In this document: in pieces, positions 5,364-62,610 of the stretch
Position numbering within the stretch: position 1 is the stretch's first letter
Layout: each line of letters starts with the position of its first letter
Assembly: GCF_963921235.1 (NCBI RefSeq)
Contig: NC_086108.1
Coordinates: 16,306,001 to 16,370,000, forward strand
Direction of reading: 5' to 3'
From: Mobula hypostoma
Taxonomy: Eukaryota
Length of the DNA stretch: 64,000 nucleotides
The notes under the pieces: model-generated
The model's database searches: none
What the model was told of the DNA's origin: nothing
Seen by the model: only the letters and a program-made list of their open reading frames with translations
Program-made: the position numbers and the translations under genes

Positions 5364-7534
5364 CAGACCAGAATATAGGTGATAAGTCAACTATAAGTCA
5401 CTTATAAATGGCTAATCACTCAATTTCGTTTCTAAAAGGGTTTATCTAACAAATTTAATATTAAACACACAGCAACACACATCAAAGTTGCTGGTGAACG
5501 CAGCAGCCCAGGCAGCATCTCTAGGAAGAGGTACAGTTGACGTTTCGAGAGGTCTCCGCCTGAAACGTCAACTGTACCTCTTCCTAGAGATGCTGCCTGG
5601 CCTGCTGCATTCACCAGCAACTTTGATGTGTGTTGCTTGAATTTCCAACATCTGCAGAATTCCTGTTGTTAAACACACAGCGCTATTTTCCTCACATGAA
5701 TATAGTGATAAGTCAATTATAAGTCACTTATAAGTCAATAGCATCATAACATTTTAAGTAACGTTTGGATATTAAACACACAGTGCATATTTTCCTCATA
5801 CGAACATATAAAATCATTGCAACACACCAATATCGCTGAATCAGTGGGAGCCCTGGGTTTGTTTCCCTGCAACAAGACGGTCCCATCGAGGGGTGATGGG
5901 AGACAGCGATACTCGAAGGGGGTTCCTTGTGTCCAGTCTATTCTGCAATTTAGTTTTTGTTGCATTCATTGCAGAAAACCCCGCTTCGCAGAGATATGAT
6001 GTTGGAAATGGAAGCAACGTTTTCAGTGCTCTGGTGGCTATCTTAGGATATTCAGCCTTGACTTTGATCCAGAATGCCAGCAGAGATGTTATGTCAAACA
6101 TACTTTTCAGACCACCGTCAATTGCAAGCTCGATGAGTTGACCTTCTTCCCACGCTGACATGAATGATTCACCGGGGACATTCACAAATGGGTCACGGAC
6201 CCACTCTTTTGCACGTCTTAGGTCATTTGCGGTTGGGAAGTAACACTCGAATTCTGTCGACAGCGAAGATAGGTGTTCGCGCACCAGCTGTGAGAAGGAT
6301 GGTGCAGCCTCAATCTCTCCTAAAATCCCAGCTAATGTTGGGAACATGTAAAATATGCCCCTGTCCACTCGCCGTCCCCACTGTTCCAGTTTGGCTTTGA
6401 AAGCAGACATTTTATCTGCCAACTTGAAGACAGTTGTCATTCTCCCCTGAAGTGACAAATTGAGCTCATTGAGCAGGTTGAAGGTGTCACACAGATAAGC
6501 AAGTTTTGCTATCCACTCCTTGTCACTGAAGTGTGCTGCCAGTGGTGACTTTTTTCGTGAAAGGAATCTCTGTAGCTGCTCTCTTAACTCAAAAACCCTG
6601 GCCAGGACCCTCCCCCTGAAAGCCACCTGATTTCAGTGTGTAAGAGAAGGTATTTGTGCTCTGCATCCATTTCCTCACAAAGCTGCTCAAATAGAAGTGA
6701 GTTAAAGGCTTTTGCTTTGATGTGATTGATAACTTCAACAACGTCACTCAATACACTGTTAAGATCAGGTGACATTTTTCAGCTATTGATTGTCCTTTAA
6801 ACTGTGGTAGCTGAAAGAGAAACCTGCGCCATCTTGTTAGCTGCAGCTTCTCCCAACAGTTCACCGCACATGTCCTTGGCAGCAGGCAGAATCAATTCTT
6901 CACCAACAGTGAAAGGCTCCTTAGCCTTAGCAATATGGCTAGCCACAAAGTACGACGCTCTTAGAGCAGCAGCATTTGTGGAGGTGGTGGCTCTCAGTAC
7001 TTGCTTCTGCCCCGCTTGCTCACATTTTTTCCGCTCAAAAATCTCAACGGGTTTGTCTTTAAGTGCAGGGTGCTGGACTCAAGGTGCTGAAGCAGTTTTG
7101 AGGGCTCCATTGCCTTATTAGACAGCTTGTCTCCACATATCACACACAGGGGGTTTGGAGCGTGCGAGTCACCGGTCGCAATAAAGCCAGTACTTTATGT
7201 ACCACTCATCCTATTTTCCGTTGAAGGAAGCTTTCTTTTTTTTTTGCAGTCTCGGCCTCCGCTGTCTCTGTGTTATCATCATCGTTAGGCCTTTTATGTC
7301 CCCTACCACTTCTTCCAAAGAAACTCTCCAACGATGTTTGTTTTTCACTCATCGAGTAATTGTAGGTTAATGACCAACTGATGACCTCACGTGCGTTCAA
7401 GTTCAACAGTGAACATGACAAGGAATGAGGAAAGGTGCAGCTGACTCATATCGTTTCATATTGCCAAATCATATTGTTTTCTTGCAGCCTGATAGCACAT
7501 GCTTTAGTCCAACAACTGTGGTTGGGGACCGCTG
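5364..7534 (-). mobile_element. hAT (Buster/Charlie-like) DNA transposon, defective
   Basis: Transposase remnants about 5841-7390 (LLLHTEIRWLS, YLCEAGFS dimerisation motif); right TIR gttggggaccgctg ends at 7534; only CAG remains at the left end; 8-bp TSD tggaatac (5356-5363) / tggtatac (7535-7542) with central TA. Confidence 0.85.
5474..5668. mobile_element. Fold-back (palindromic) PLE terminal-repeat insertion
   Basis: Inverted arms of about 75 bp (5472-5546 / 5562-5636); direct repeat ttaaacacacagc at 5461-5473 and 5669-5681. Confidence 0.85.
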
Positions 7535-7804
7535 TGGTATACAGATGTCTTCCACTGTGAAAACTGATGCAAAATACGCATTCAGTTTCTCTATGTCTCT
7601 CATTACAATACCTCCAGTGTCATTTTCTATTGGTCTTATATCTACCGTCAACTCTCTTTTACCCTTTATATACTTAAAAAATCTTTTAGTATCTTCTTTG
7701 ATATCAGTTCCCAACTTCCTTTCATAATTTAAAAACGCAAACAACAGGAATTCTGCAGATGCTGGAAATTCAAGCAACACACATCAAAGTTGCTGGTGAA
7801 CGCA

Positions 7805-9680
7805 CCTTGTCCCCATTCCAACCTCACTCCTTCGGAACGCTCTGCTCTCCACTCCCTCCGCACTAATCCTAACCTTATTATTAAACCCACTGATAAGGGG
7901 GGTGCTGTTGTAGTCTGGCATACTGACCTCTACCTTGCCGAGGCACAGCGACAACTCGCGGATACCTCCTCTTATTTACCCCTCGATCGTGACCCCACTA
8001 AGGAGCACGAGGCCATTGTCTCCCACACTATCACCGACTTTATCCACTCAGGGGATCTCCCATCCACTGCTACCAACCTTATAGTTCCCACACCCCGCAC
8101 TTCCCGTTTCTACCTCCTACCCAAGATCCACAAACCTGCCTGTCCTGGCCGACCTATTGTCTCAGCTTGCTCCTGCCCCACCGAACTCGTTTCTGCATAC
8201 CTCGACACTGTTTTATCACCCCTTGTTCAATCCCTTCCGACCTATGTTCGTGACACTTCTCACACTCTTAAACTTTTCGATGATTTTAAGTTCCCTGGCC
8301 CCCACCGCTTTATTTTCACCATGGATGTCCAGTCCTTATATACTTCCATCCCCCATCAGGAAGGTCTCAAAGCTCTACGCTTCTTTTTGGATTCCAGACC
8401 TAATCAGTTCCCCTCTACCACCACTCTGCTCCGTCTAGCGGAATTAGTCCTTACTCTTAATAATTTCTCCTTTGGCTCCTCCCATTTCCTCCAAACTAAA
8501 GGTGTAGCTATGGGCACCCGTATGGGTCCTAGCTATGCCTGCCTTTTTGTTGGGTTTGTGGAACAATCTATGTTCCGTGCCTATTCTGGTATCTGTCCCC
8601 CACTTTTCCTTCGCTACATCGACGACTGCATTGGCGCTGCTTCCTGCACGCATGCAGAACTCGTTGACTTTATTAACTTTGCCTCCAACTTTCACCCTGC
8701 CCTCAAGTTTACCTGGTCCATTTCCGACACCTCCCTCCCCTTTCTAGATCTTTCTGTCTCTGTCTCTGGAGACAGCTTATCCACTGATGTCTACTATAAG
8801 CCTACTGACTCTCACAGCTATCTGGACTATTCCTCTTCTCACCCTGTCTCTTGCAAAAACGCCATCCCCTTCTCGCAATTCCTCCATCTCCGCTACATCT
8901 GCTCTCAAGATGAGGCTTTTCATTCTAGGACGAGGGAGATGTCTTCCTTTTTTAAAGAAAGGGGCTTCCCTTCCTCCACTATCAACTCTGCTCTTAAACG
9001 CATCTCCCCCATTTCACGTACATCTGCTCTCACTCCATCCTCCCACCACCCCACAAGGAATAGGGTTCCCCTGGTCCTCACCTACCACCCCACCAGCCTC
9101 CGGGTCCAACATATTATTCTCCATAACTTCCGCCACCTCCAACGGGATCCCACCACTAAGCACATCTTTCCCTCTCCCCCTCTCTCTGCATTCCGCAGGG
9201 ATCGCTCCCTACACAACTCCCTTGTCCATTCGTCCCCCCCATCCCTCCCCACTGATCTCCCTCCTGGCACTTATCCTTGTGAGCGGAACAAGTGCTACAC
9301 ATGCCCTTACACTTCCTCCCTTACCACCATTCAGGGCCCCAAACAGTCCTTCCAGGTGAGGCATCACTTCACCTGTGAGTCGACTGGGGTGATACTACAT
9401 CCGGTGCTCCCGATGTGGCCTTTTATGTATTGGTGAGACCCGACGCAGACTGGGAGACCGCTTTGCTGAACATCTACGCTCTGTCCGCCAGAGAAAGCAG
9501 GATCTCCCAGTGGCCACACATTTTAATTCCACATCCCATTCCCATTCTGACATGTCTATCCACGGCCTCCTCTACTGTAAAGATGAAGCCACACTCAGGT
9601 TGGAGGAACAACACCTTATATTCCGTCTGGGTAGCCTCCAACCTGATGGCATGAACATCGACTTCTCTAACTTCCACTAA
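7805..9680 (+). pseudogene. PLE reverse transcriptase / GIY-YIG endonuclease ORF (5'-truncated, frameshift near 9393)
   Basis: Open for more than 500 codons with QTKGVAMGTRMGPSYA and RYIDD; Cys-rich linker PCERNKCYTC; the GVIY...YIGET motif is frameshifted here but intact in the copy at about 38050-38105. Confidence 0.9.
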
Positions 9681-9972
9681 GGCCCCACCTCCCCCTCGTA
9701 CCCCATCTGTTACTCATTTTTATTCACACATTCTTTCTCTCATTCCTTTTTCTCCCTCTGTCCCTCTGAATATACCTCTTGCCCATCCTCTGGGTCACCC
9801 CCCTCTTGTCTTTCTTCCCGGACCTCCTGTCCCATGATCCTCTCGTATCCCCTTTTACCTATCACCTGTCCAGCTCTCGGCTCCATCCCTCCCCCTCCTG
9901 TCTTCTCCTATCATTTTGCATCTCCCCTTCCCCCTCCAGCTTTCAAATCCCTTACTCACTCTTCCTTCAGTT

Positions 9973-10008
9973 AGTCCTGACGAAGGGTCTCGGCCTGAAA
10001 CGTCGACT
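9973..10008 (+). ncRNA. Minimal type I hammerhead ribozyme motif
   Basis: AGTC-CTGACGA-AGGgtctcggCCT-GAAA-CG-TC^GACT: helix I AGTC/GACT, conserved core, helix II, loop-less palindromic helix III (ACGT); predicted cleavage after C10004. Confidence 0.85.
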
Positions 10009-10259
10009 GCGCCTCTTCCTATAGATGCTGCTTGGCCTGCTGCGTTCACCAGCAACTTTGATGTGTGTTCCTTTCATAATTCATCTTTTCCTTCCTAATG
10101 ACCTTCTTAGTTTCCTTACGCAAGTTTTTAAAAGCTTCTCAATCGTCTATCTTCCCACTAGCTTTGGCTTCCTTGTGTGCCCTCTCTTTTGCTTTTACTT
10201 TGGCTCTGACCTCACTTGTCAGCCATGGTAGTGCTCTTCCATTCAAAAATTTCTTCTTA

Positions 10260-14793: not shown

Positions 14794-14872
14794 CAGGGGT
14801 TCCCAATCTTTTTATGCCATAGACCCCTACCATTAACCAAGGGGTACGTGGATCCCAGGTTGCGAATGCTCA
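14794..14872. mobile_element. hAT-type MITE (about 80 bp)
   Basis: TIR caggggttcccaa with a degenerate right TIR; 8-bp TSD ctctagag / ctccagag; inverted homologue of 44964-45043. Confidence 0.75.
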
Positions 14873-15091
14873 CTCCAGAGAAAGTTTTCAGAAAATTCAA
14901 AATGTCCATTTTCTTCGGTGTGAAGGAGTGCATCTTGGCATTAATCCTGAACATCTTAGTTCCAAATTGAACTCTTCCACAAGAGGAAACAGTTTCTCTC
15001 CATTTACTACCTTAAACATCCATTTAGATAATCTATATTCAAGGAAAAATAACTTCAGCTTGTACAATCCATCTCCATTACATAAACCTAC

Positions 15092-15288
15092 TTTGACAGC
15101 TGTCAAGGTTGACTGGTCCCTGGCAGTTTCCTCATCTGAATCATCCTGCCTGCTGCGCTTCCGCTCCATGTTAAAGCGGCGGTGGCTCTCAGATGGCAAC
15201 AGGGAGCGGAAGGATTTCTCTTCGATTTCATCTTCTGTCATTGATTCATCAAATTTCAAAGAATACTCAGTGGCAATAGAGGCTGAAT
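15092..15288 (-). CDS. CEP350: CEP350 coding exon
   Basis: Acceptor TGTCTCCAG, donor AAA|GTAGGT; 197 nt, phase 1 to 0; DSASIATEYSLKFDESMTEDEIEEKSFRSLLPSESHRRFNME..., a highly conserved CEP350 segment. Confidence 0.96.
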
Positions 15289-16619
15289 CTGGAGACAGAT
15301 CATATAGCTTAATTAGGCAAAAGAATATAAGAGTACAGTTTTCAATTTCATATTCTTATCTGAAATGTTCCCAAACTGAAGATTTGGATGTTGATAGCTG
15401 AATTGTACTTCTGAGTTAGGTAAACTAATTACATTTTGTGTTTGTGTATTTGTGAATGTCACTTCAGAGATTAAAAACTTAATGAAGTCAATATGCAACT
15501 GCATAATTGATAATGCTATGGCTAATTATGCTTTGTTTTAAAACAATGATTTCTTAACATGTTGATATGATCAAGGTTTCCACTTACTACCAATATGCTC
15601 AGAGATGAATATTATTCACTTTCTATGCAGGTACTAAGTACCGAATCCTAAGATTTTGACAATAAAGAGACAGCAATAGAAACAGAGAAATTCCAATTTT
15701 CTGTAACTACTGCTACTTGTTTAGCATGGAATCTGGCAGACAGATAATTGTGCACATGCTAATTTTACCATGCTTTCTTATCCCAGCACAGAACCAAAGA
15801 AATATGAAAGAGTCTGATTTAAACAGTGCATTTATGGACAGCTAGTTTACAGAATCCAAAATAAAAGCACCAGTGTAGGTAATTAGAATTTGACTATCAG
15901 CATTTTGTCTTAAACTCTACTCGCCAAGTTTTCATCCACTTACTTCACCTTATCTATATTATGTTGTAGAATTTAAATATCCTCAGCACAACAAGCCTTC
16001 CCATCTATTTTCATTTGGTTGCCTTCCACTCTGTCCTCTCCTCCAACCCAATCTTATACTGTCTTCAACCTCTCCTGTGAGACATAATTGTGAGCCAAAC
16101 ACAGGCAAATGGGGCTAGATTAGACGGTCATCTTGGTCAGTGTCGATGACTTGAGCTGGAGGGCCAATTTCTGTGCCGTATTATTCTATATTGGGACATA
16201 TTTTCTTGTTGGGGTTTGAGCCTTAAACATATTTTTGTTGTCAACGTATTAATTATTTAAACGTTTGTCTCTGCTTCGCCACTACCATACCCTGTAACAG
16301 TGTTTTTCAATCTACCATAGCCAGATAGCCAATTCATACTTTATATCTTAGTTTACTTTGTGTAGATTTACACAATACACAATATTACTTTAAATCTTGA
16401 TATAATGTTCTATCATATTACGATTATTCTTTCCTAAAGGTTCATTAGGACAAATGTGCAATTGAACAGTTGGTGATGGAGATATGTTCATTGGCTTCAT
16501 TGATTACCATTACCATTGACACAACTACGCAGCAAGAATACTTTCCACAGGAATCTATTGTCTTGGAAAAATTCTAAAGTTAATTACAATGAGATAATAA
16601 GAAGAACAGAAGAAATGCA

Positions 16620-19332: not shown

Positions 19333-19782
19333 TAGGCATCCATTAGTCTCATGAGACCATAGATTTGCGCCTTGGAAAGTTTCCAGGGCGCAGGCCTGGG
19401 CAAGGTTGTATGGAAGACCAGCAGTTGCCCATGCTGCAAGTCTCCCCTCTCCATGCCACCAATGTTGTCCAAGGGAAGGGCATTAGGACCCATACAGCTT
19501 GGCACTGGTGTCATTGCACAGCAATGTGTAGTTAAGTGCCTTGCTCAAGGACACACACGCTACCTCAGCCAAGGCTCGAACTAGTGACCTTCAAATCACT
19601 AGATGAACACCTTAACCACTTCAAACAACAGGAATTCTGCAGATGCTGGAAATTCAAGCAACACACATGAAAGTTGCTGGTGAACGCAGCAGGCCAGGCA
19701 GCATCTCTAGGAAGAGGTGCAGTCGACGTTTCAGGCCGAGACCCTTCGTCAGGACCTTAACCACTTGGCCACGCGCCAACAC
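19333..19782 (-). mobile_element. tRNA-headed SINE with bipartite RTE-derived body, interrupted by a PLE mini-insertion
   Basis: A box TGGCCAAGTGG (19771-19761) and B box GTTCGAGCC (about 19581-19573); body matches the RTE 5' UTR (22985-23116) and RTE 3' end (26523-26571). Confidence 0.85.
19622..19753 (-). mobile_element. PLE terminal-repeat mini-insertion (132 bp) with hammerhead core
   Basis: 13-bp TSD accttaaccactt (19609-19621 / 19754-19766); starts C-CTGACGA on the minus strand; hammerhead spans 19721-19756. Confidence 0.9.
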
Positions 19783-25700: not shown

Positions 25701-26578
25701 AGCTTGACCATCAACCTGAAGAAGACCAATGTGTTGGGCCAAGGCGTTGAGCACCCCCTGCCATTACCATCAACAACTACGAGCTGGAGGTAGTTCACGA
25801 GTTTACATACCTTGGCTCCACCATCACGGACAGCCTCTCCCTAGACCCTGAGATAAACAGACCGATCGGACAAGCAGCCTCAACATTCGCCAGCCTGACA
25901 AAGGGAGTCTGGGAGAACAGAAAGGTGACGATGCACACCCAAGTTGCTGTCTGCAGGGCCTGCGTCCTCAGCACACTGCTTTACGGCAGCGAGACCTGGA
26001 GCCTCTACTACAGACAAGTGCGGCGACTTAATGCCTTGCACCTTCACAGCCTGAGACGCATCCTGGACATCAAGTGGACAGACCAAGTCACCAACAATGA
26101 GGTCCTGGCCCGCGCCCAGATACCCAGCCTCTTCATCCTGCTCCAACAACACCGTCTCCGCTGGGTGGGCCACGTACAGGGCATGTCAGATGGGAGGATC
26201 CCGAAAGACCTGCTGTACAGGGAACTGGCCTCCGTCAAGAGAGCACAAGGGCGGCTCCATCTTTGTTTCAAAGATGTCTGCAAGAGAGACATGAAGTCAT
26301 TGAACATGAACGTCGAGAGGTGGGAGGACATCGCAAGCGATTGCTCTCACTGAAGGCTGGAACTACGTAGCGGTCTAAAAAGTGGAGAAGAGAAGCTGAG
26401 ACTTGCTGCTGAAGAAAAGCACACTCATCGGAAAAACAGTACCAAGACAACACTGGAGGACAGCGCCTTCAAGTGCAGTCGCTGCAGCCACAACAGACAC
26501 TACTTTACCAACACGACTGAAGCAAGACTTTCCAGGCACAGATCCATGGTCTCGCGAAACTAACGGATGCCACCACCA
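22792..26578 (+). mobile_element. Full-length RTE-clade LINE (defective)
   Basis: 14-bp TSD agattataaatatt (22778-22791 / 26579-26592); single APE-RT frame about 23458-26353 broken by frameshifts and stops (LQETRL, LLGDLNA, QGCVLAPTLF, LFADD); short (CCA)n tail. Confidence 0.93.
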
Positions 26579-33461: not shown

Positions 33462-35080
33462 CAGTGGCATGCAAAAGTTTGGGCAACCCTTGTCAAAGTT
33501 TCTGTTACTGTGAATAGTTAAGTGAGTAGAAGATGAACTGATCTCCAAAAGTCATAAAGTTAAAGATGAAACATTCTTTTCAACATTTCAAGCATGATTA
33601 TTGTATTATTTTTGTTTCGTACAATTTTACAGTGAAAAAAAGCAAAGGAACACCATGAAAAAGTTTGGGCACCCTCAAGAGATTTGAGCTCTCAGATAAC
33701 TTTTACCAAGGTCTCAGACCTTAATTAGCATGTTCGGGCTATGGCTTGTTCACAGTCATCGTTAGGAAAGGCCAGGTGATGCAAATTTCAAAGCTTTATA
33801 AATACCCTGACTTCTCAAACCTTGTCCCAACAATTAGCAGCCATGGGCTCCTCTAAGCAGCTGCCTAGCTCTCTGAAAATTAAAATAAATGATACCCACA
33901 AAGCAGAAGGCTATAAGAAGATAGCAAAGCATTTTCAGGTAGCCATTGCCTCAGTCTGTAATGTAATTAAGAAATGGCAGTTAACAGGAACAGTGGAGGT
34001 CAAGTTGAGGTCTGGAAGACCAAGAAAACTTTCCGAGAGAACTGCTCATAGGGTTGCTAGAAAGGCAAATCAAAACCCCCGTTTGACTGCAAAAGACCTT
34101 CAGGAAGATTTAGCAGACTCTGGAGTGCTGGTGCACTGTGCTACTGTGCAGTGACACCTGCACAAATATGACCTTCATGGAAGAGTCATCAGAAGAAGAC
34201 ATTTCCTGCATCCTCACCACAAAATTCAGTGTCAGAAGCTTGCAAAGGAACATCTAAACAAGCCTGATGCCTTTTGGAAACAAGTCTGATGAAGTTAAAA
34301 TGGAACTTGTTGGCCGCAATGAGCACAGGTATGTTTGGAGAAAAAAGGGTGCAGAATTTCATGAAAAGAACACCTCTTCAACTGTTAAGCACAGGGGTGG
34401 ATTGATCATGCTTTGGGCTTGTGTTAAAGCCAGCAGCATGGGGAACATTTCACCGGTAGAGGGAAGAATGAATTCAATTAAATACCACCAAATTCTGGAA
34501 GCAAACATCACAATCTCTGTCAAAAAAAAAAGCTGAAGGTGAAAAGAGGATGGCTTCTACAATAGGATAATGATCCTAAACACACCTCAAAATCCACAAT
34601 GGACTACCTCAAGAGGCACAAGCTGAAGGTTTTGCCATGGCCCTCACAGTCCCCTGACCTAAACATCATCGAAAATCTGTGGATAGACCTCAAAAGAGCA
34701 GTGCACGCAAGACGGCCCAAGAATCGCACAGAACTAGAAGCCTTTTGCAAGGAAGAATGGGCGAAAATCCCCCAAACAAGAATTGAAAGACTCTTAGCTG
34801 GCTGCAGAAACCATTTACAAGCTGTGATACTTGCCAAAGGGGGTGTTACTAAGTACTGACCATGCAAGGTGCCCAAATTTTGGCTTCAGGCCCTTTTCCT
34901 TTTTTCTTATTTTGAAACTGTAAAAGATGGAAATTAAAAAAGCAATCTTGCTTAAAATATTAAAGAAATGTGTTATTTTTAACTTCATGCCTTTTGGAAA
35001 TCAGGTCATCTTTTACTCACTTAGCTATTCACAGTAACAGAAATTTTGACCAGGGGTGCCCAAACTTTTACCTACCACTG
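33462..35080 (+). mobile_element. Tc1/mariner DNA transposon, defective
   Basis: TA flanks (33460-33461 / 35081-35082); termini CAGTGG...CCACTG with long imperfect TIRs; transposase remnants about 33843-34859 (RSGRPRK, DNDPKH, WPSQSPDLNIIE). Confidence 0.93.
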
Positions 35081-35800
35081 TAAAAGCCAAAGAGAGGGTA
35101 TATAATAAATAGTGGGAAGTTGGAGGATTGGGAAGCTTTTAAAAACCAACAGAAGACAACTAAAAATGTCAAAAAAGGAAAATATGGTATACGAATGTAA
35201 GCCAACTAATAACATAAAAGTGGATATTAAAAGTTTCCTTGGACTTTTAAAATGTAAAGTAGAGGTGAGAGTAAATCTCAAGACTGCTGGAAAATGATGC
35301 TGGAGAGGTAATAATGAGAGGAGGGGGCAGAACAAATAAACAGCCAACAAACTGAATAATTATTTTGCATCAGTCTTCACTGTGGAAGACACTAACAATA
35401 TGCCGGAAGTGTCAGGGGACAGAAGTGAGTGAAGTTGTCATTACTAGGGAGAAGGTGCTTGGGAAAATGAAATAGATAGGTAAGTTATTTGGACCAGATG
35501 GTCTACACCCCAGGGTTCTCAAAGAGGTGGCTGAAGAGATTGTGGAGGTATTAATAATGACCTTTCAAGAATCAATGGATTCTGATAGGGTTCCAGAGGA
35601 CTGGAAAAAATTGCAAATGTCACTCCACTCTTCAAGAAGGGAGAAAGCAGAAGAAAGAAAATGAGAAGCCAGTTAGGAAGATGTTGGAGTTGATTGTTAA
35701 GAAAACAACAGGAATTCTGCAGATGCTGGAAATTCAAGCAACACACATCAAAGTTGCTGGTGAATGCAGCAGGCCAGGCAGCATCTGTAGGAAGAGGTGC

Positions 35801-35836
35801 AGTCGACGTTTCAGGCCGAGACCCTTCGTCAGGACT
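35801..35836 (-). ncRNA. Minimal hammerhead ribozyme motif
   Basis: Reverse complement of AGTCCTGACGAAGGGTCTCGGCCTGAAACGTCGACT, intact. Confidence 0.85.
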
Positions 35837-38640
35837 AACTGAAGGAAGAGTGAGTAAGGGATTTGAAAGTTGGAGGGGGAGGGGGAGATCCAAAATGATA
35901 GGAGAAGACAGGAGGGGGAGGGATGGAGCCAAGAGCTGGACAGGTGATAGGCAAAAGGGGATACGAGAGGATCATGGGACAGGAGGTCCGGGAAGAAAGA
36001 CAAGTGGGGGGGGCGGAGCCAGAGGATGGGCAAGAGGTATATTCAGAGGGACAGAGGGAGAAAAAGGAGAGTGAGAGAAAGAATGTGTGCATAAAAATAA
36101 GTAACAGATGGGGTACGAGGGGGAGGTGGGGCCTTAGCAGAAGTTAGAGAAGTCGATGTTCATGCCATCAGGTTGGAGGCTACCCAGACGGAATATAAGA
36201 TGTTGTTTCTCCAACCTGAGTGTGGCTTCATCTTTACAGTAGAGGAGGCCATGGATAGACATGTCAGAATGGGAATGGGATGTGGAATTAAAATGTGTGG
36301 CCACTGGGAGATCCTGCTTTCTCTGGCGGACAGAGCGTAGATGTTCAGCAAAGCGGTCTCCCAGTCTGCGTTGGGTCTCGCCAATATATAAAAGGCCATA
36401 TCGGGAGCACCGGACGCAGTATATCACCCCAGTCAACTCACAGGTGAAGTGTTGCCTCACCTGGAAGGACTGTTTGGGGCCCTGAATGGTGGTAAGGGAG
36501 GAAGTGTAAGGGCATGTGTAGCACTTGTTCCACTTACATGGATAAGTGCCAGGAGGGAGATCAGTGGGGAGGGATGAGGGGGACGAATGGACAAGGGAGT
36601 TGCGTAGGGAGCGATCCCTGCGGAATGCGGGGGGGGGGAGGGAAAGATGTGCTTAGTGGTGGGATCCCGTTGGAGGTGGCGGAAGTTACGGGGAATAATA
36701 TGTTGGACCCGGAGGCTGGTGGGGTGGTAGGTGAGGACCAGGGGAACCCTATTCCTAGTGGGGTGGCGGGAGGATGGAGTGAGAGCAGATGTACGTGAAA
36801 TGGGGGAGATGTGTTTAAGAGCAGAGTTGATAGTGGAGGAAGGGAAGCCCCTTTCTTTAAAAAAGGAAGACATCTCCCTCGTCCTAGAATGAAAAGCCTC
36901 ATCCTGAGAGCAGATGCGGCGGACTAAATCACCATGGATGTCCAGTCCTTATAAGTTCCCTGGCCCCCACCGCTTTATTTTCACCATGGATGTCCAGTCC
37001 TTATATACTTCCATCCCCCATCAGGAAGGTCTCAAAGCTCTACGCTTCTTTTTGGATTACAGACCTAATCAGTTCCCCTCTACCACCACTCTGCTCCATC
37101 TAGCGGAATTAGTCCTTACTCTTAATAATTTCTCCTTTGGCTCCTCCCACTTCCTCCAAACTAAAGGTGTAGCTATGGGCACCCGTATGGGTCCTAGCTA
37201 TGCCTGCCTTTTTGTTGGGTTTGTGGCACAATCTAGGTTCCATGCCTATTGTCCCCTACTTTTCCTTCGCTACATCGACGATTGCATTGGCGCTGCTTCC
37301 TGCACGCACGCAGAGCTCGTTGACTTTATTAACTTTGCCTCCAACTTTCACCCTGCCCTCAAGTTTACCTGGTCCATTTCCGACACCTCCCTCCCCTTTC
37401 TAGATCTTTCTGTCTCTGTCTCTGTCTCTGGAGACAGCTTATCCACTGATGTCTACTATAAGCCTACTGACTCTCACAGCTGTCTGGACTATTCCTCTTC
37501 TCACCCTGTCTCTTGCAAAAACGCCATCCCCTTCTCGCAATTCCTCCGTCTCCGCCGCATCTGCTCTCAGGATGAGGCTTTTCATTTTAAGACGAGGGAG
37601 ATGTCTTCCTTTTTTAAAGAAAGGGGCTTCCCTTCCTCCACTATCAACTCTGCTCTTAAACGCATCTCCCCCATTTTACGTACATCTGCTCTCACTCCAT
37701 GCTCCCGCCACCCCACTAGGAATAAGGTTCCCCTGGTCCTCACCTACCACCCCACCAGCCTCCGGGTCCAACATATTATTCTCCGTAACTTCCGCCACCT
37801 CCAACGGGATCCCAGCACTAAGCACATCTTTCCCTCCCCCTCTCTCTCTGCATTCCGCAGGGATCGCTCCCTACGCAACTCCCTTGTCCATTCGTCCTCC
37901 CCATCCCTCCCCCACTGATCTCCCTCCTGGCACTTATCCGTGTAAGCGGAACAAGTGCTACACATGCCCTTACACTTCCTCCCTGACCACCATTCAGGGC
38001 CCCAAACAATCCTTCCAGGTGAGGCAACACTTCACCTGTGAGTCGACTGGGGTGATATACTGCGTCCGGTGCTCCCAATGTGGCCTTTTATATATTGGCG
38101 AGACCTGACACAGACTGGGAGACCGCTTTGTTGAACATCTACGCTCTGTCCGCCAGAGACAGCAGGATCTCCCAGTAGCCACACATTTTAATTCCACATC
38201 CCATTCCCATTCTGACATGTCTATCCACGGCCTCCTCTACTGTAAAGATGAAGCCACACTCAGGTTGGAGGAACAACACCTTATATTCCGTCTGGGTAGC
38301 CTCCAACCTGATGGCATGAACATCGACTTCTCTAACTTCTGCTAAGGCCCCACCTCCCCCTCATACCCCATCTGTTACTTATTTTTATGCACACATTCTT
38401 TCTCTCACTCTCCTTTTTCTCCCTCTGTCCCTCTGAATATACCTCTTGCCCATCCTCTGGGTCCCCCCCACCCTTGTCTTTCTTCCCGGACCTCCTGTCC
38501 CATGATCCTCTCGTATCCCCTTTTGCCTATCACCTGTCCAGCTCTTGGCTCCATCCCTCCCCCTCCTGTCTTCTCCTATCATTTTGGATCTCCCCCTCCC
38601 CCTCCAACTTTCAAATCCCTTACTCACTCTTCCTTCAGTT

Positions 38641-38676
38641 AGTCCTGACGAAGGGTCTCGGCCTGAAACGTCGACT
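38641..38676 (+). ncRNA. Minimal hammerhead ribozyme motif
   Basis: AGTCCTGACGAAGGGTCTCGGCCTGAAACGTC^GACT; predicted cleavage after C38672. Confidence 0.85.
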
Positions 38677-40525
38677 GCACCTCTTCCTACAGATGCTGCC
38701 TGGCCTGCTGCGTTCACCAGCAACTTTGATGTGTGTTGCTTGATTGTTAAGAATGTGGTTTTGGGCGACTTGGAGGCATATGATTAACAAGTTAAGACTC
38801 CATGGTATTACAGGAAAGATGCTAGCATACGTAGAATATTGTCTGACTGGCAGGAGGCAATACATGGAAATAAAGGGTGCTAGTGACTAGTGGTGTTCCA
38901 CAGGGGTCTGTGTTGGGACCGCTTCTTTTTATGTTATACATCAATGATTTGGGTGATGGAATGATGACCCTGTGGCCAATTTTGCAGACGATATGAAGAC
39001 AGGTGGAAAGGCAGGTAGTGTTGAGGAAGCAGACAGGCTACAGAAGGACTTACAAATAGATTAGGAGAATGGGCAAAGAAGTGGCAAATGGAATAGAGTT
39101 TCAAGAAATGTATGGTCATGTACTTTGGTAGAAGAAATAAAAGCATAGACTATTCTCAAAATAGAGCGAAAATTCATTAAATCTGAGGGGCAAAGGGACT
39201 TGAGAATCCTCATGCAGAATTCCTTAAAGGTTAATTTACAGGTTGAGTCAGTGGTAAGAAAGGCAAATGCAATGTTAGTATTCTTTTCAGAGGACTAGAA
39301 TATAAAAGTAAGCCTGTAATGTTGAGGCTTTATGAAACAACGGTGAGGCTTGAATATTGTGGGCAGTTTTTGGGCTCTTTATTTACGAAAGGATGTGCTG
39401 ACATTGGACGGGGTTCAAAGGAAGCTCATGAAAATGATTCTAGGATTGGAAGTCCTCATATTGGAAGGATATGAGGAGCCTTTAATGGCTCAAGGGCTGT
39501 ATTCCCTGAAGTTCAGAAGAATAAGAGGGGATCTCATTGAAACCTATCAAATGTTGAAAGGCCTCAATAGAGTGGATGTGGAGATGATGTTTCTTATGGT
39601 GGCGGAGTCTGAGCAGAGGATAACAGTCTCAGAATAGCGGGATATCCATTTAGAACTGTGATGAGAAATTTCTTTAGCCAGGTGGTGGTGAATCAGTGGA
39701 ATTCTTTGTCACAGGTCGCTGTAAAGATCAAGTCACTGAGTATATTTAAGAGAGAGGTTGATAAAGATTCTTGATTAAACAGGGTATGAAGGGATATGGG
39801 GAGAAGGCAGGTGATTGGGGCCCAGAATGACATGGATCAGCCATGATAAAATGGTGGAGCAGACTCAATGGGCCAAATGGTCTAATTCTGCTCCTATATC
39901 TTATGGTCTTAACCGTAACCGCCAACAAAATTTTAATACCGAGCCACAATTTCAGGTGATGAAAAATGTGGTCAAACTAATAAGCTTTGAAGAAAACCCA
40001 TGGATGGAAAAGATATCAAGTTAATTGGGGTTTATAGAAAGGGAGCTTATATAGGTAGGGAGTGATTGAGGCTATTAACTAAGTTTTGTTTGCCAATACC
40101 CATAATGCCCATTGGTTTGATGGAATAACTTGACTTGTGGGATAATAACTTTTTCTTTTTAATTCTGGGCCTTTCCCTTCCATTTGTTTACAACCCAGTC
40201 ACTTCTACAAACTTCCCACACCTCTAATTCTGGCTACTAGATCATATTCCCATTATTCTACCATTGGTCATCTTGCCTTGTTGCCAAGACCATAATCTCT
40301 GGAGTTCGAGCCATTAAACTTCAATAACTCTTTTTAAGATCCATCATTAAAACACCATCTTGATCATGGTTTTGATCGCTGCTAGTATCTCCTCTTTTGG
40401 TTTGCCACCTACTGTCATGATTCTACTTCTGTGAAAGGTTTCAGGCTTTATACAAATCCAACACCCAAGGACAGAATAATGCTGAAGTATTTACATGTCT
40501 GGACGCATGCAAAATGATCAAATAC

Positions 40526-44427: not shown

Positions 44428-44554
44428 CTGATGAAGGGTCTCGGCCTGAAATGTCAACTGTGCTTCTTCCTATAGAGGCTGCCTGGCCTGCTGTGTTCCA
44501 CCAGCATTTTGTGTGTGTTGCTTGAATTTCCAGCATCTGCAGATTTCCTCGTGT
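44428..44554 (+). mobile_element. PLE terminal-repeat mini-insertion starting at the hammerhead core
   Basis: Begins CTGATGAAGGGTCTCGGCCTGAAATGTC, followed by a variant terminal repeat; no long TSD; 5' arm of helix I absent. Confidence 0.8.
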
Positions 44555-48690: not shown

Positions 48691-50926
48691 AGTTCTGACA
48701 CTATTTTTTTCAGTAAGATGCCGCACAGACACACCACAATCAAGCTTCTGCAATAACTCCACTTTGTGTTATTGATAATGATAGATGCTTCCTTCTCTTT
48801 TTCTCATTGTTACCCATAGGGATATCTGCAGCTCTTCTTGACATCTTCACAGTGAAATTAAACACAAAGTCAACAGTGAACACAAAATATCAGCCAACAG
48901 CAAATGCACATGTAACCACTACGAGCGCTGAGCCACAACTGACATCTGGTGGCCTCTGCTAGTGCTGCCATGTCACACCTGAGTGTCGTCAGCTGTTGGC
49001 GAAAAAAACTTCGGTTTTTGGAGCTATTTGGATTTCAGGATTTCAAATAAAGGAATGTGCACCTGTACTTAACTAGCCAATCATGTGGTAGCAACTCAAT
49101 GCATAAAAACATGTAGACATGGTCAAGAGGTTCAGTTGTTGTTCAAACCAAACATCAGAAGGGGAAAGAAATATGATTCCTTCCTTTTGAAGGGCTGATT
49201 ATTGACTATAGGAGGAGGAAACCAGAGGTCCATGAGCTAGTCCTCATCAAGGGATTAGAGGTGGAGAGGGCCAGCAAATTTTAATTCCTCAGCATTAACA
49301 TTTCACAGGATCTATCCTGGGTCCAGCACACAAATGTCATTACAAAGAAAGCACAGCTGGTTTCAGTGATGTCATTGCCCAGAATGGCAGCTTAAATCAA
49401 CAGCTCCTCTGGAAAAACGCACATTTTACCCAGTTAATCCATCAAATATCTTTCGAAAATATCTCAATTGATGAGGGGGGCAAGAATGGAGATAGAAAAA
49501 GCATCACTACGGAGCCTATGGAAGAGAGAGGTGCAACGCGCGGCTCTCCTACACGTGCACGTGGTGGCGAAGCAGATGCAGGGCCTCGTTCAGGTGAAGC
49601 GGCAAATATAATAAAGATTCTGGAAGAGATCAGGGAAGTCCAAAAAGATATAAAACAGCAAATCAATGATATCAAGTCAGAGCTCACCAACATCAATCAG
49701 AAAATAGCGGTAGCAGAGACTCGAATTGAGAAGGTCAAAGATCGCGTGCAAAATGTGAAACAGATGCTAGTAAAACAATAAAAATATTAGATCAACAGGA
49801 AAGTAAATTGCTTGACCAGGAGGGAAGATCGCAACGGAAAAATATCAGGATTTATAATGTTCCCGAAGGAGCGGAGGGTTTGTCGATGACAGACTTTGTA
49901 GAAAAGTTGCTGCAGGAAGTGCAGGAGATTCCACCGACTATGGAGATTGAAATTGAGAGTGTGCATCGTGCACTCGTCCCGAGGCCTCCCGCAGACAGAG
50001 AAAGTAAGCCGCGCTCAATAGTACTTAGATTCCTTCGATTCAAGAGCAAGGCGGAGATTCTACGAAGGGCCTGGGGTAAGAAAAGGGTGTTTTGGAACGG
50101 GAAGTTAATATACATCGATCATGATTACCCCCTGACGGTCCTACATAAATGGAGGGAATATCCCGAAGTGAAATGAATATTAAAGCAAGAAAAGATTAAA
50201 TTCCAAACCTCGTACCCTGCTAAATTGAGAGTATTTGACGAAGGAGAGAGACAGTTATATCCGACAGTGGAAGAGGCGACTGCAGACATGAACAACAGAG
50301 GACTGCCCGTTAGCGTGGTCAAACTAAGGGAAAGTCTGGCTCAGCAGTAATCCCGATCTGCTTGGGAAATAGTAAGAGAACCGAGAAAGCAGGGGATGGG
50401 AGAAGGACGAGAGAAGGATATTAGAAAGAGACTGTGAGTTCTCCGAAGACAGCTCTCACCTTCTCCAGAACAGCCATAAGGTTTGGCTATCTTTAAAAGT
50501 GCTGATAAACTAAACGGAAGCAAAAATAGACCGTGATATACCTATCTTGAGAAATACGTATTATAACGTGGATTTTATATTACTCAATTTTCTTCATTCA
50601 TTCATTCACTCCTTTTTCCCCACCTAAATGAGAATATATATATGGGAGGAATACACAGGGAAATCTTTTCTGTGTAATGGACATAGATTTTTTTATTTAC
50701 TTTTATAGGTACTGCAACGAGGGCCATCAAATTACAGGTAGGAGGGGCTATCCCCCACGGCTAGACATTTTCTCTAGCTCAACCCAGGGTCATCTAGAGA
50801 CCCCAGCCTTGGAATCACACCTTCATTACCTTTTTTTTATTATTCGCGTTTCTTGGTTCTTATTTGTTCAGGGAGTAGATTGATTAAGTTATATTCTGCA
50901 AATTTCAATGATATACTAACAGGTAA

Positions 50927-51935
50927 CCTCTAACCATTGACACCAGTGCTGGGTCCATTGTTATTTGTCATCTATATCAATGATCTGGATGATAATGTGG
51001 TAAATTGCATCAGCAAATTTGCTGATGATACAAAGATTGGAGGTGTAGTAGACAGTGAGCAAGGTTTTCAGAGCCTGCAGAGGGACTTGGACCAGCTGGA
51101 AAAATGGGCTGAAAAATGGCAGATGGAGTTTAATACAGACAAGTGTGAGGTATTGCACGTTGGAAGGACAAACCAAGGTAGAACATACAGGGTTAATGGT
51201 AAGGCACTGAGGAGTGCAGTGGAACAGAGGGATCTGGGAATACAGATACAAAATTCCCTAAAAGTGGCGTCACAGGTAGATAGGGTCGTAAAGAGAGCTT
51301 TTGGTATATTGGCCTTTATCAATCAAAGTATTGAGTATATCAGCTGGAATGTTATGATGAGGTTGTATAAGGCATTGGTGAGGCAGAATCTGGAGTATTG
51401 TGTTCAGTTTTGGTCACCAAATTACAGGAAGGATATAAATAAGGTTGAAAGAGTGCAGAAAAGGTTTACAAGGATGTTGCCAGGACTTGAGAAACTCAGT
51501 TACAGAGAAAGGTTGAATAGGTTAGGACTTTATTCCCTGGAGCGTAGAAGAATGAGGGGAGATTTGATAGAGGTATATAAAATTATGATGGGTATAGATA
51601 GAGTGAATGCAAGCAGGCTTTTTCCACTGAGGCAAGGGGAGAAAAAAAACCCAGAGGACATGGGTTTAGGGCGAGGGGGGAAAAGTTTAAAGGGAACATT
51701 AGGGGGGGCTTCTTCACACAAAGAGTGGTGGGAGTATGGAATGAGCTGCCAGATGAGGTGGTAAATGCGGGTTCTTTTTTAACATTTAAGAATAAATTGG
51801 ACAGATACATGGATGGGAGGTGTATAGAGGGATATGGTCCGTGTGCAGGTCAGTGGGACTAGGCAGAAAATGGTTTGGCGCAGCCAAGAAGGGCCAAAAG
51901 GCCTGTTTCTGTGCTGTAGTTTCTATGGTTTCTAT
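50927..51935 (+). mobile_element. 5'-truncated CR1-type LINE in the L1 inter-ORF region
   Basis: RT C-terminus FADDTKIGG; tail ttctatggtttctatgg; short ggtaa repeat on both flanks. Confidence 0.9.
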
Positions 51936-53982
51936 GGTAAATACACATGGCTAAGGACAAAGTAAAATTCATTTCTTTTAATGTCAATGGGCTGTTAAAT
52001 CCAATCAAACGAAGTAAAATTCTATCAAAAATTTTGAAGTACTTGAAATTGGAGGTAAGGAGGGCAAATATATTCTGGTTAAGTGGGAGTATAGACAGAA
52101 ATCCAGTTACTTTATTGAATATATACGCACCCCCAGGAAGTGATATTAGTTTCTTCCAGAAAATTACTAATATTATGGTAACAGAAACAGAAGGTCTCTT
52201 GATATGTGGGGGAGACTTAAATTTACAATTACAACCAAAGTTAGACTCTTCCAATAGAAAAACTTATGAGACAAAGTCCTTATATAAGAAAGTTAACACT
52301 CTTTTTGAGCATGTTGATCTAATTGATATATGGAGGGATCTTTACCCCGATAGAAGGGATTACACTCATTATTCTGTCCCCCATTCCGTATATACAAGAA
52401 TAGACTATTTCATAACATTTGGAAAAGACAAAGACAAAATAAACACCTGTGGAATTGAGACAATAGATGTAAGTGACCATGCACCTATACATTTATCTGT
52501 TGATTTTAACCTACTACCAAAGTATACTATTTGGAAACTAAATTCAAGTCCACTCAATGATTTCTATTTTAAGGAACAAATTAAAAAAGAAATTGGTCTT
52601 TACTTAGAATTCAATGATAATGGAGAGGTTTCACCTCCCATTCTATGGGATACTCTGAAGGCTGTCTTAAGAGGGAAAATTATAGTGGTATCTTCATATA
52701 AGAAAACAAAAGGGTTAAAACATTACAGGAATTACAAAATAAGCTGAAGGAACTAGAAAAAAAACACAAATTGAGTTTGTCACAGGATACACTGGAGGAA
52801 ATTTTAAAAATTAGGAATGAAATTAACAGTTTGGCTACACAAGAAATTAGAAAAAAATTAATGTTTCTGAAACAGAGACACTATGAAAGTGGATCTAAAT
52901 CTATGAGAATACTGGCATGGAAACTGAAAAAAAAGACAGCAGAAAATACAATTCATAGAATTAGGGATCCAAAAACAAAAGTGATAAAAAAAATAAGCTA
53001 AGTTTAATTCAAGAAGTTTTTGAAATGTTTTACAAAACTCTATATTCCAAAGCTCCAGGGGAAAGCATAGCCCAGATTGACACCTTCCTGAATTCTTTAG
53101 AGTTACCCACTTTAAGCAAAGAACAAAATAGAACGATGACTGCTGACATAACTGAAGCTGAACTAAAAACTGCAATTAGTAGGCTTAAATTATGCAAGTC
53201 ACCAGGATCAGATGGATATATGGCAGAGTGGTATAAGGAATTTAGAAATGAATTAATTCCGGTTTTGCTCCCCACACTGAACTGGGCTCTAAGAAAGGCA
53301 CAAATGCCACCCAGCTGGAAGGAGGTGATAATCTCAGCTATACCGAAAGAAGGCAAGGAAAAAATGGAATGTGGGTCATTTACACCAATATCTGTTCTTA
53401 ATGTGGATTATAGATTATTTACCTCCATCATGGGCAAACAATTAGAAGAGTTTCTACCCACACTGAAACATAATGATTATACAACAATGCCAAACACAAG
53501 ACAATATACGAAGGACACTTCACATGATGATCTTATAAAAAAAAATGAAATTGAAGCAATAGTGATAAGTGTGGACACTGAAAAGGCATTTGATTTGGTT
53601 AACTGGAATTTTCTTTACAGAGTTTTACATAGATTTGGTCTACATGACACAATTATTAAAACAATACAGGCACTATATGACATTCCTACTGCTAGAATTA
53701 AAATCAATGGATATATATCTAATAGTTTTACCCAAGAAAGGGGCACGAGACAGGGTTGTGCATAATCAACACTACTCTTCGCGTTATATCTGGAACCATT
53801 AGTTCAACACATCAGACAAAATGAAGATATCAGAGGAATTACTATTAAAGGGACAGAACATAAATCGGCCTGTTATGTGGATGATATTTTGGTCCATCTA
53901 GGGCAACCAACATACTCTTTACCTACATTGATGCAATCCTTTGAACAATATGGCCAATTATCAGGATACAAGATCAACATAG

Positions 53983-54827: not shown

Positions 54828-56326
54828 ATAGATAAAACCCAACTACTTTCATGTAACTATAGCCCACCACGAGAAATTGAAAGTAGATATCCTTGGGCAT
54901 GGCAAACAGGGTCTGTCAAATATTTGGGCATCATTAGGCCAAAAGATTCCGCAAAATTATCAGAATGCAATTATCAGCCTACATATAAAAAAAATTAAGG
55001 AACATATAACAAGATGGAATCTAATTCCTTTTCTTGGTCTCAGCTCAAGGACTGAATCTATTAAAATGTATGTACTGCCCAGACTACTATATCTCTTTCA
55101 GACCCTACCAATACAGATTAACCAAAATCAATTCAATTAATGGAACAAGATCCTATCAAGACATATATGGCAAGGTAAAAGGCCTAAAATTCGTCTCAAA
55201 ACTTTGCAATTAGCCAAGGAAAAGGGGGGATGGGGCCTACCTTCTCTTAGAGATTACTATTTTGCAGCACAGTTGAGAGCTGTGATATGCTGGTGCAATC
55301 CATCATATGCCGCTTAATGGAAAAACATTGAGGAGAGGATACTTTCCATCCTCATACAGGCAATTTTGGCTGATAACAACCTACAAAGTTATTTAAACAC
55401 TACTGATAACCCATGGTTGAAATGGACTCTTAAAATATGAAAAACTATTATGAAAGAATATAAACTAGAGAGAGAGACATTGCAATTTTTAAATAGCATG
55501 CATATGACTTGGATTTTACGCCAAACAAACTGGATGCCAGATTTAAGGACTGGACAACTAAAGCAATAACAGCTATTTGCAATATAATAAAAGAAGAAAC
55601 AATGTTCAGTTTTGAAATGCTCAAAGAGAAACACTTATTAGAAAAACAAGACTTTTATCGACATTTACAGATGCGACAGTATGTTAATAGGATGGTTAAA
55701 AGTGTAAACAAGGCAAGTACATGTTTGATAGAGCTATTTAGAAAAGCATATAATTCAGACAACGGTAGTAGAATAATTTCAAGCATGAATAATGGTTTGC
55801 CAAATCTTAAAACACATTTGACTTCATACATTAAAACAAAATGGGAGAAGGAAGCAGGGATAATAATATCTGAAGAAGAATGGACAATAATATAGAGGTA
55901 TCAATGGAAGAGTACCAGTTCACAGAAATGGAGGGAGTTCGGGTGGAAAAACTTGGTAAGATATTTTATTACACCCTCTCAGAAATCCCATTATGATAGT
56001 AATCTCCCTGTTTGCTGGAGAAATTGTGGAAATCAAAATGCAAACCGTTATCATATTTTCTGAGAATGCCTCGTTATCAAAGACTATTGGAGTGGGATAC
56101 ACAATGCCCTACAAGACATCTTTAAATGTGAAATACCCTTATATTTTGGGTATATACTTCAAGAATGGTTGAAAAGACATAAATATTTCATGAATATACT
56201 GCTGGTGGCTGGTAAAAAGACCCTTACCAGGAAATGGTCAGCACAGGAGACCCCAACTTTAAATGTATGGATGGAATTACAATGGACATTTACAAAATGG
56301 AGAAGATAACAGCATCTGTTAATCAT

Positions 56327-61194: not shown

Positions 61195-62318
61195 TGATAT
61201 GCTGGTGCAACCCATCATATGACGCTCAATGGAAAAACATGGAGGAGAGGATACTTTCCATCCCCATATAGGCAATCTTGGCTGATAACAACCTACAAAG
61301 TTTCGTAAATAATATTGACAACCTGTGGATGAAATGGACTCTTAAAATATTGAAAACTATTATAAAAGAATATAAACTAGAGAGAGACATTGCAATTCTT
61401 AAATGGTGTGCCGAATAAACTGGATGCTAGATATAAGGACTGGACAGCTAAAGCAATAACAGCTAATTGCAATATAATGAAAGAAGGAACACTGTTCAGT
61501 TTTGAAGTGCTCAAAGAGAAACACTTATTAGAATAGCAAGACTTTTACCGGTATTTACAGATGCGACAGTATGTTAATAGGACAGTTAAAAACGTAACCA
61601 AGGCAAGTACATGTCAGATAGAGCTATTTAGAAAAGCATATAATTCAGACAACGGTAGTAGAATAATTTCAAGCCTGTATAAGGGTTTGTCACAAATCCT
61701 AAAACACATTCGACTTCATACATTAAAACAAAATGGGAGAAGGAAGGAGGGATAATAATATCTGAGGAAGAATGGACAATAATATGGAGGTAACATACAT
61801 CAAAGTTGCTGGTGAACGCAGCAGGCCAGGCAGCATCTATAGGAAGAGGTGCAGTCGACGTTTCAGGCCGAGACCCTTCGTCAGGAATATGGAGGTACCA
61901 GTGGAAGTGTACCAGTTCACAGAAATGGAGGAAGTTCGGGTGGAAAGTCTTGATTAGATATTTTATTACACCCTCTCAGAAATCCTATTATGATAGTAAT
62001 CCCCTTGTTTGCTGGAGAAATTGTGGAAATCAAAATGCAAACTATTATCATATTTTCTGGGAATACCCCATTATCAAAGACTATTGGAGTGGGATACATA
62101 ATGCTCTACAAGACATCTTTAAGTGTGAAATACCTTTAGAGAGTAAGACCAATATTTTGGGTATATACCTCAAGAATGGTTGTAACAAGATAAATATTTA
62201 ATGAGTGTACTTCTGGTGACTGGTAAAAAGACCAGGAAATGGTTATCACAGGAGTGCCCAACTTTAAATGTATGGATGGAAAGTACAATGGACATTTACA
62301 AAATGGAGAAGATAACTG
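61195..62318 (+). mobile_element. L1-clade ORF2 3' fragment
   Basis: Homologous to 55284-56312; interrupted by a PLE mini-insertion. Confidence 0.88.
61793..61885 (-). mobile_element. PLE terminal-repeat mini-insertion (93 bp) with hammerhead core
   Basis: 12-bp TSD aatatggaggta (61781-61792 / 61886-61897); the empty site is visible in the other L1 copy near 55888-55901; starts C-CTGACGA on the minus strand. Confidence 0.92.
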
Positions 62319-62610
62319 CCACACACAAAGTTGCTGGCGAACTCAGCAGGCCAGGCAGCATCTCTAGGAAGAGGTACAATCGACGTTTCGGGCCGAGACC
62401 CTTCATCAGGACTAACTGAAAGAAGAGCTAGTAAGAGATTTGAAAGTGGGAGGGGAAGGGGGAGATCCAAAATGATAGGAGAAGACAGGAGGGGGAGGGA
62501 TGGAGCCAAGAGCTGGACAGTTGATTGGCAAAAGGGATATGAGAGGATCATGGGACAAGAGGCCTACGGAGATAGAAAGGGGGGGGGGGGGAGAACCCAG
62601 AGGATGGGCA
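62319..62610 (-). mobile_element. PLE 3' UTR / terminal-repeat fragment with hammerhead (62378-62413)
   Basis: Minus strand AGTC-CTGATGA-AGGGtctcggCCC-GAAACGTC^GATT; homologous to about 9780-10067. Confidence 0.85.

Follow-up and report, generated by a model that had tools for sequence, protein, structure and literature searches.

Short insertions in the window

The window, that is the whole stretch of 64,000 nucleotides of Mobula hypostoma contig NC_086108.1 analysed here, contains three short copies of a retrotransposon terminal repeat, referred to as minis, and several longer copies of the same repeat. Element positions are counted along the sense strand of the element with the C of CUGANGA as 0, and the predicted cleavage is placed between +27 and +28.

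61793..61885, minus strand: mini of 93 bp with the short 3' end, spanning element position -1 (up to -2 if microhomology is counted) to about +91
61781..61792 (left) and 61886-61897 (right): target site duplication (TSD) of this mini, 12 bp, exact
19622..19753, minus strand: mini of 132 bp with the long, tail-bearing 3' end, spanning -1 (up to -3 if microhomology is counted) to about +130
19609-19621 and 19754-19766: TSD of this mini, 13 bp, exact
44428..44554, plus strand: mini of an older subfamily (about 86% identical), starting at 0 to +2, long 3' end
62320..62610, minus strand: further shortened copy that extends to about -200 and shares its host repeat with the 61793 mini
35703..36923, minus strand: long reference copy with GIY-YIG region, 3' pyrimidine tract, hammerhead and tail; one arm of the inverted insertion 35703-38743
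7730..10067, plus strand: 5'-truncated Neptune-type copy with part of the reverse transcriptase (RT) ORF (7805-9436), CX4CX2C linker and a hammerhead at 9977; an inverted long-tail piece lies at its left end, and a 14-bp TSD (7716-7729 / 10068-10081) bounds it
5471..5670, both orientations: head-to-head inverted pair of a short and a long arm, joined within the hammerhead, TSD present

The three short insertions proposed in the initial annotation are real, and two of them are bounded by exact TSDs of 12 and 13 bp; for 44428-44554 a TSD was searched for and none was found. For the 61793 mini an empty paralogous site, with a single copy of the site, lies near 55889 in the paralogue 55283-56313 of the host repeat. 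The identical start base reported for the two cleanly bounded minis holds for the boundary outside the TSD, at -1 in both cases, but not necessarily for the copied ends, which may be -2 and -3, since the TSD ends match one and two further bases of the element. The description of these copies as consisting of ribozyme only was overstated, as the motif occupies about 38 of 93-132 bp and in many minis the 5' strand of helix I is incomplete.

The host repeat at 61195-62319, which houses the 61793 mini and the 62320 copy, is a second copy of the 3' part of the LINE at 49299-53765 (+); judged by eye, 49299-53765 (+) and 55283-56313 / 61195-62319 are broken pieces of an L1/Tx1-like LINE. The window further holds a nearly complete, broken LINE at 23365-26353 (+) with endonuclease- and RT-like translations (RTE-like by eye), transposase-like fragments at 5841-6632 (+) and 33780-34154 (+), hAT-like and Tc1-like by eye, and a short open frame at 14823-15401 on the minus strand that resembles a host exon. 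The inverted pair 5471-5670 lies in repeats beside the hAT-like fragment 5841-6632.

The parent element

In the longer copies an RT is followed by a C-terminal GIY-YIG domain, the order that defines EN+ Penelope-like elements (PLEs). Note that the two profile matches come from different copies, with GIY-YIG above its cut-off (E 2.9e-5) and RVT_1, matched in one copy, below it (E 1.1e-5, 25.8 bits against 29.6). Further EN+ traits are the hammerhead in the terminal repeat, the optional tail of 30-40 bp and the presence of tandem and inverted insertions. The CX4CX2C linker read in the translations fits the CX2-5CxxC linker between RT and EN that is described for Neptune and shared with Nematis (PMC8557442), and judged by linker motif and domain order the parent is probably a Neptune-type element. 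The ORF ends at -302; in copies running beyond the tail it starts at +168/+169, so that an RNA with its 5' end at -4 would contain the whole of it. The minis are truncated copies of this ordinary Penelope-like retrotransposon rather than a separate family. Two of the longer copies (L237, L255) diverge from the reference copy at -796 and share the flank upstream of that point, which may mark a variant subfamily or a peculiarity of the reference itself.

The hammerhead and its helix I

61852..61884, minus strand: minimal type I hammerhead motif, sequence read against the description in PMC4209133; CUGACGA at 61878-61884, helix II at about 61865-61876, GAAA at 61861-61864, predicted cleavage between 61857 and 61856, helix I 3' strand at 61852-61856
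35833..35837, minus strand: helix I 5' strand (-5..-1), hotspot of 5' ends
35835..35858, minus strand: putative splice-acceptor-like motif, with a branch-like motif, a pyrimidine tract, and CAG and TAG 4 nt apart

The motif comprises the CUGANGA and GAAA boxes, helix II, a short helix I and the palindromic remnant of helix III. An Rfam scan yielded no hammerhead match and one chance microRNA match on an inverted pair, and CTGANGA by itself is not enriched in the window (57 observed vs 46.9 expected). Helix I consists of -5..-1 paired with +28..+32, and each of these pairs is kept in 21-28 of 31 older long copies, as against 4/31 at -6 and -7. The lowest-energy fold of the monomer hides the core and is no better than shuffled sequences (z -1.24), while in a modelled dimer -5..-1 of one copy would pair with the far end of the other.

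The same bases can be read in two other ways, given the consensus YYANWYY of an initiator and that of a branch point: as initiator-like (TTAGTCC, with the A at -4) and as the YAG of a splice acceptor. In the young family TACTAAC or CTCAC is followed by the tract and by CAG/TAG, and among the 31 older long copies, a set chosen for pyrimidine-rich upstream sequence, YAG is found at -5..-3 in 24 and a branch-like motif in 24. The TACTAAC is perfect in part of the young family, and the acceptor-like motif is conserved at helix I across diverged hammerhead families (L031-L200). A donor-like site is present at -629, within the endonuclease region.

Distribution of 5' ends

We analysed 140 evenly spaced 10-kb stretches (1.4 Mb) together with the first 30 loci of two anchored searches, keeping copies at least 86% identical over +45..+90 and excluding duplicate entries, copies lying at the edge of a locus, side copies at anchored loci, and inverted and direct-repeat junctions; the end of L055 was set by eye at -3 instead of +2. 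Of the 44 simple, i.e. non-inverted, copies reaching 0, 11 end at -6..-2, corresponding to 5.6% per base. Six more end at -56..-7 (0.40% per base), one at -300..-57 and 17 at -1080..-301, and nine run on. In the downstream-anchored sets, 8 of 36 simple copies end at +1..+49 (0.51% per base). The peak at -6..-2 is thus 12 times as high as either flank, with p 7e-8, or 7e-6 after allowing for about 100 window positions. The hotspot is the outer half, or 5' edge, of helix I and not the core itself, since the pairs at -5..-1 are the ones kept in older copies and those at -6 and -7 are not. About three quarters of the simple copies pass it. In the pyrimidine tract at -300..-57, the single simple 5' end in 6,490 copy-bases corresponds to 0.02% per base, vs 0.14% in the ORF.

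The boundary had been set apart from the cleavage site, and this is borne out, as 0 of the 36 simple copies of the downstream-anchored sets end at +25..+31. Nor is the peak simply the upstream repeat's own boundary: among 11 copies that continue into the ORF, 3 start at -5..+2 and 1 within -6..-2. A stop at a lariat branch (-18) was ruled out, with none of the 33 simple copies passing -7 ending there. The random set alone contains 9 such minis among 26 simple copies in 1.4 Mb, which extrapolates to about 22,000 genome-wide (95% range 10,000-42,000).

Whole-genome counts of exact matches, covering 3.48 Gb, gave a consistent picture. The anchor 0..+29 has 40,228 matches, of which 1,422 end at -2, 2,886 at -3 and 2,799 at -4; 975 copies end at -5, counted with an anchor one base shorter, and 30,670, 27,153 and 22,943 reach -5, -9 and -18, respectively. 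The loss is 7.9% at -3 and 8.4% at -4, against 3.1% (0, -1), 3.8% (-2) and 3.2% (-5) at neighbouring bases and 2.9% (-6..-8) and 1.85% (-9..-17) further upstream, and these per-base losses also include point mutations and inverted junctions. A raw BLAST histogram of ends was dropped in favour of young-family, inversion-aware counts, since matches to older families break off at -4 where upstream homology is missing. As evidenced by the whole-genome losses and the simple-copy counts, the shared boundary goes beyond chance, and a sharp genome-wide peak does exist, although it lies at -4/-3, the edge of helix I, and not at the core where it had been expected. Contigs from 4 sequencing runs showed loose ends at 35836; these may stem from older families, and the contigs are uninformative on starts or ends.

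Loci selected by end class comprised 70 ending at -4 (among the first 71 matches listed), 30 ending at -5, and 20 out of 23 non-C rows in the first 37 matches listed for -3. By eye, the first 30 loci ending at -4 are 16 inverted junctions, 11 simple copies with TSD and 3 others. A fold-back of the new DNA at helix I was rejected, as the junction expected from it is absent, by eye, from the 70 loci ending at -4. In the 16 scored simple copies ending at -5 (L291-L320), C precedes the element in 11, giving a CTAG palindrome (by eye).

Many junctions carry 1-5 nt of microhomology, and this raises the question whether a special stop is needed at all: ends might be trimmed to wherever joining is easiest, the AT-rich -6..-2 matching AT-rich target ends. 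The scatter of inverted junctions over -13..+34 would suit such a bias. However, the same AGT occurs at -8..-6, where the loss is only 2.9% per base, and in about 12 TSD-bounded junctions at -4, judged by eye, microhomology is absent and the A at -4 is not target-derived, so that copying truly reached -4 in these cases. We therefore consider joining bias a very doubtful explanation.

3' ends and inverted pairs

The 3' ends cluster near +92 and +129, with 26 simple copies in each cluster. The difference of about 40 nt between the minis that had been pointed out is real and matches a tail already known from PLEs (PMC11167929); in Poseidon PAc this tail lies between two internal start sites of reverse transcription (PMC11167929), and by analogy the two 3' ends of the minis would fit the same arrangement. 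Whichever of the two 3' ends they carry, minis stop at one and the same 5' place, so that the shared boundary is independent of the 3' end used and the stop goes by position rather than length. A preference of minis for the short 3' end (10/11, p 0.004) was not repeated, the classes being about even in the class-selected loci (by eye).

Inverted junctions account for 34 of 61 arms in the random set. All 36 inverted pairs scored (L031-L260) consist of one short arm (about +92) and one long arm (about +129), and the rule also holds for the three inverted insertions of the window (5471-5670, 7730-10067 and 35703-38743). A tail at one end only has already been described in words (PMC3846280, PMC8557442), and self-priming on an antisense template has been put forward as an alternative for head-to-head junctions (PMC3846280). 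The strict pairing seen here would fit priming of both target strands, one per site, and provides a testable rule for the use of the two start sites.

Minis interleave with longer copies

The short insertions had been proposed to be an independent, retrozyme-like unit, with an own clade of minis as its expected signature. To the minis of the unbiased sample we added 48 from the class-selected loci ending at -4, -5 or -3; in the resulting set of 61, L370 turned out to be inverted, and the unbiased mini L055 was left out because of misregister. Comparison with 35 longer copies shows an 88-nt core identical to one of them in 27 of the 61 minis; every common haplotype occurs in minis and long copies alike, and there is no diagnostic base private to minis. 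In a tree, weak because the alignment is short, the label changes between mini and long 23 times and a single mini clade is rejected (AU p 0.0017); the count of identical cores is independent of the tree. The minis interleave with the long copies, and the proposal of an independent unit fails.

A non-autonomous family of retrozyme-like type with a short RNA of its own, for which the extrapolated 22,000 copies and a few direct tandems restarting at -5/-4 might be quoted, is accordingly hardly credible. Its 5' ends spread over -6..-2, its 3' ends are the two sites of the parent, its boundaries lie away from the cleavage site, and the three minis of the window as well as most of those sampled are single and dispersed. 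The features of retrozymes, namely tandem units with a complete hammerhead and a family distinct from the parent repeat, are not found in the minis. In the two-unit direct tandems L205, L357 and L358, the second unit starts at -5/-4 behind about +205, +75 and +780 of another copy; these may be template jumps and seeds of retrozyme-like repeats.

Relation to known elements

The closest kin are the truncated copies and solo pseudo-LTRs of EN+ Neptune-type PLEs (Cervera and de la Pena 2014, PMC4209133; Arkhipova et al. 2013, PMC3846280; Craig et al. 2021, PMC8557442). Shared with them are the RT with C-terminal GIY-YIG, the cysteine linker, a minimal hammerhead in the terminal repeat, an optional tail of 30-40 bp on one of the ends, 5'-truncated copies in inverted arrangement, junctions with TSD or microhomology, and many single hammerheads derived from truncated elements. 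In their available parts, however, these papers describe truncation without a preferred point, whereas here about a quarter of the simple insertions end at the edge of helix I, and unlike in those descriptions the tail is on exactly one arm in each of the inverted pairs.

Poseidon PAc of Anolis (Frangieh et al. 2024, PMC11167929) is alike in having two internal start sites that bound the tail, an uncleaved RNA template, cutting and extension of both target strands, and a product length determined by the template's 5' end. It is unlike the present element in belonging to another clade and in an ORF that starts within the hammerhead, rather than at +168; hotspots of genomic 5' ends are not reported in the results section of that paper, and its text supplements contain no match. 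The animal non-LTR retrozymes (Cervera and de la Pena 2020, PMC7229834; Li, Clavereau and Pollet 2026, 10.64898/2026.07.22.740005) are likewise short and non-coding with a type I hammerhead, related to PLE terminal repeats and presumably moved by PLE enzymes. In contrast to the minis, which lie scattered with a minimal and in many cases clipped hammerhead and do not make up a separate lineage, they are described as tandem, with mostly canonical hammerheads, circular RNA and families of their own. In the literature outside subscription papers we found no prior report of a 5' end hotspot at a PLE hammerhead, and a hotspot at the edge of its helix I is apparently unreported, the element itself being of a known kind. 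Annotations should enter minis of this sort under truncated PLE copies, not under SINEs or retrozymes.

Origin of the shared boundary

We favour, at roughly even chances, the explanation that the minis are by-products of target-primed reverse transcription that set out from the tail sites and came to an end at helix I since a share of the template RNAs ends there. The RT would start at either internal tail site, about +92 or +129, and run out at the 5' edge of helix I (-5..-3), where the template would end. This end may be a transcription start at the initiator-like TTAGTCC, with the A at -4, or it may be left by a nuclease that trims the RNA as far as the ribozyme, folded and bound by protein. 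The newly made DNA end would then be joined to the target bluntly, via microhomology or with a few extra bases, and in inverted pairs, with both target strands primed from one tail site each, the new strands would meet head to head. Target-primed, internally initiated reverse transcription on uncleaved RNA is documented for the Poseidon element (PMC11167929), and the PLE hammerhead cleaves poorly, its cleavage being dispensable for insertion in vitro (PMC4209133, PMC11167929). That 5' ends pile up at the edge of helix I, while the cleavage site has none, provides in vivo evidence for the copying of uncleaved RNA and for a physical boundary at this edge.

Several observations speak against an RNA end. 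A main start at -4 might give more than 3 of 11 ORF-continuing copies starting at -5..+2, and the whole-genome peak consists in part of inverted junctions, for which the palindromes of the ribozyme supply microhomology. That some three quarters of the simple copies run past the hotspot also counts against it. Transcription from further upstream is suggested by the acceptor-like motif together with D. virilis Penelope, in which transcription starts upstream of an intron whose end falls at the 5' end of helix I (PMC2377424, PMC4209133).

Alternatively, the RNA could be longer and the RT released at helix I, if this is paired between copies in a dimeric or protein-bound hammerhead and not unwound. 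The predicted dimer fold supplies the pairing, and the 3/11 share of ORF-continuing copies starting there is near the general rate of 11/44. The stop also tracks helix I in young and older families, with the older-family tendency to end at -5..-3 weak and taken from truncated copies devoid of recognisable TSDs. A stop or jump at the ribozyme, the second proposal of the initial annotation, may hold. A stop by structure is expected on the side that the RT meets first. For a ribozyme folded within one RNA this is the 3' side, +28..+32, where 0 simple copies end; for a helix between copies it is 0/-1, yet 0 of 44 simple copies end there, the whole-genome loss is at the neighbouring level of 3.1%, and the ends are found at the far side. 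We regard such a release as unlikely, though not far-fetched.

The block could also be formed by splicing factors that occupy the 3' splice site, with its branch motif, pyrimidine tract and YAG, on unspliced RNA. The YAG and the branch-like motif, each conserved in 24 of the 31 older long copies, would agree with this, as would the composition of the young family and the D. virilis intron ending at helix I (PMC4209133). However, the YAG is also demanded by the pairing of helix I, and the tract begins at -10 in the young family vs -6 in older ones with no apparent shift of the stop. A spliced template was rejected, as the 48 class-selected minis share no upstream exon or sequence and one candidate junction is absent from 1.99 Mb, which counts against the splicing-factor block as well and leaves it improbable. 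Note that splicing was shown in D. virilis (PMC2377424, PMC4209133), while in the present element it is suggested by sequence alone.

Returning to an end of the template RNA at helix I, a broader reading, held only tentatively, is that the minis footprint an intermediate of Penelope transposition: a paired RT-endonuclease would use strictly one tail site per strand on an RNA that has its 5' end defined by the uncleaved hammerhead, overlapping a conserved splice acceptor, and some 20,000 strong-stop-like insertions would be its trace. If so, the ribozyme would act as an end marker or shield of the RNA rather than as a cutter.

Copying of a capped RNA 5' end is expected to leave an extra G at the 5' junction. 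A G precedes the A at -4 in 8 of 22 simple copies (p 0.33), or in 8 of 16 when cases with microhomology are left out (p 0.07); by batch, it is found in 7 of 11 TSD-bounded simple copies in the first and in 1 of 10 in the second.
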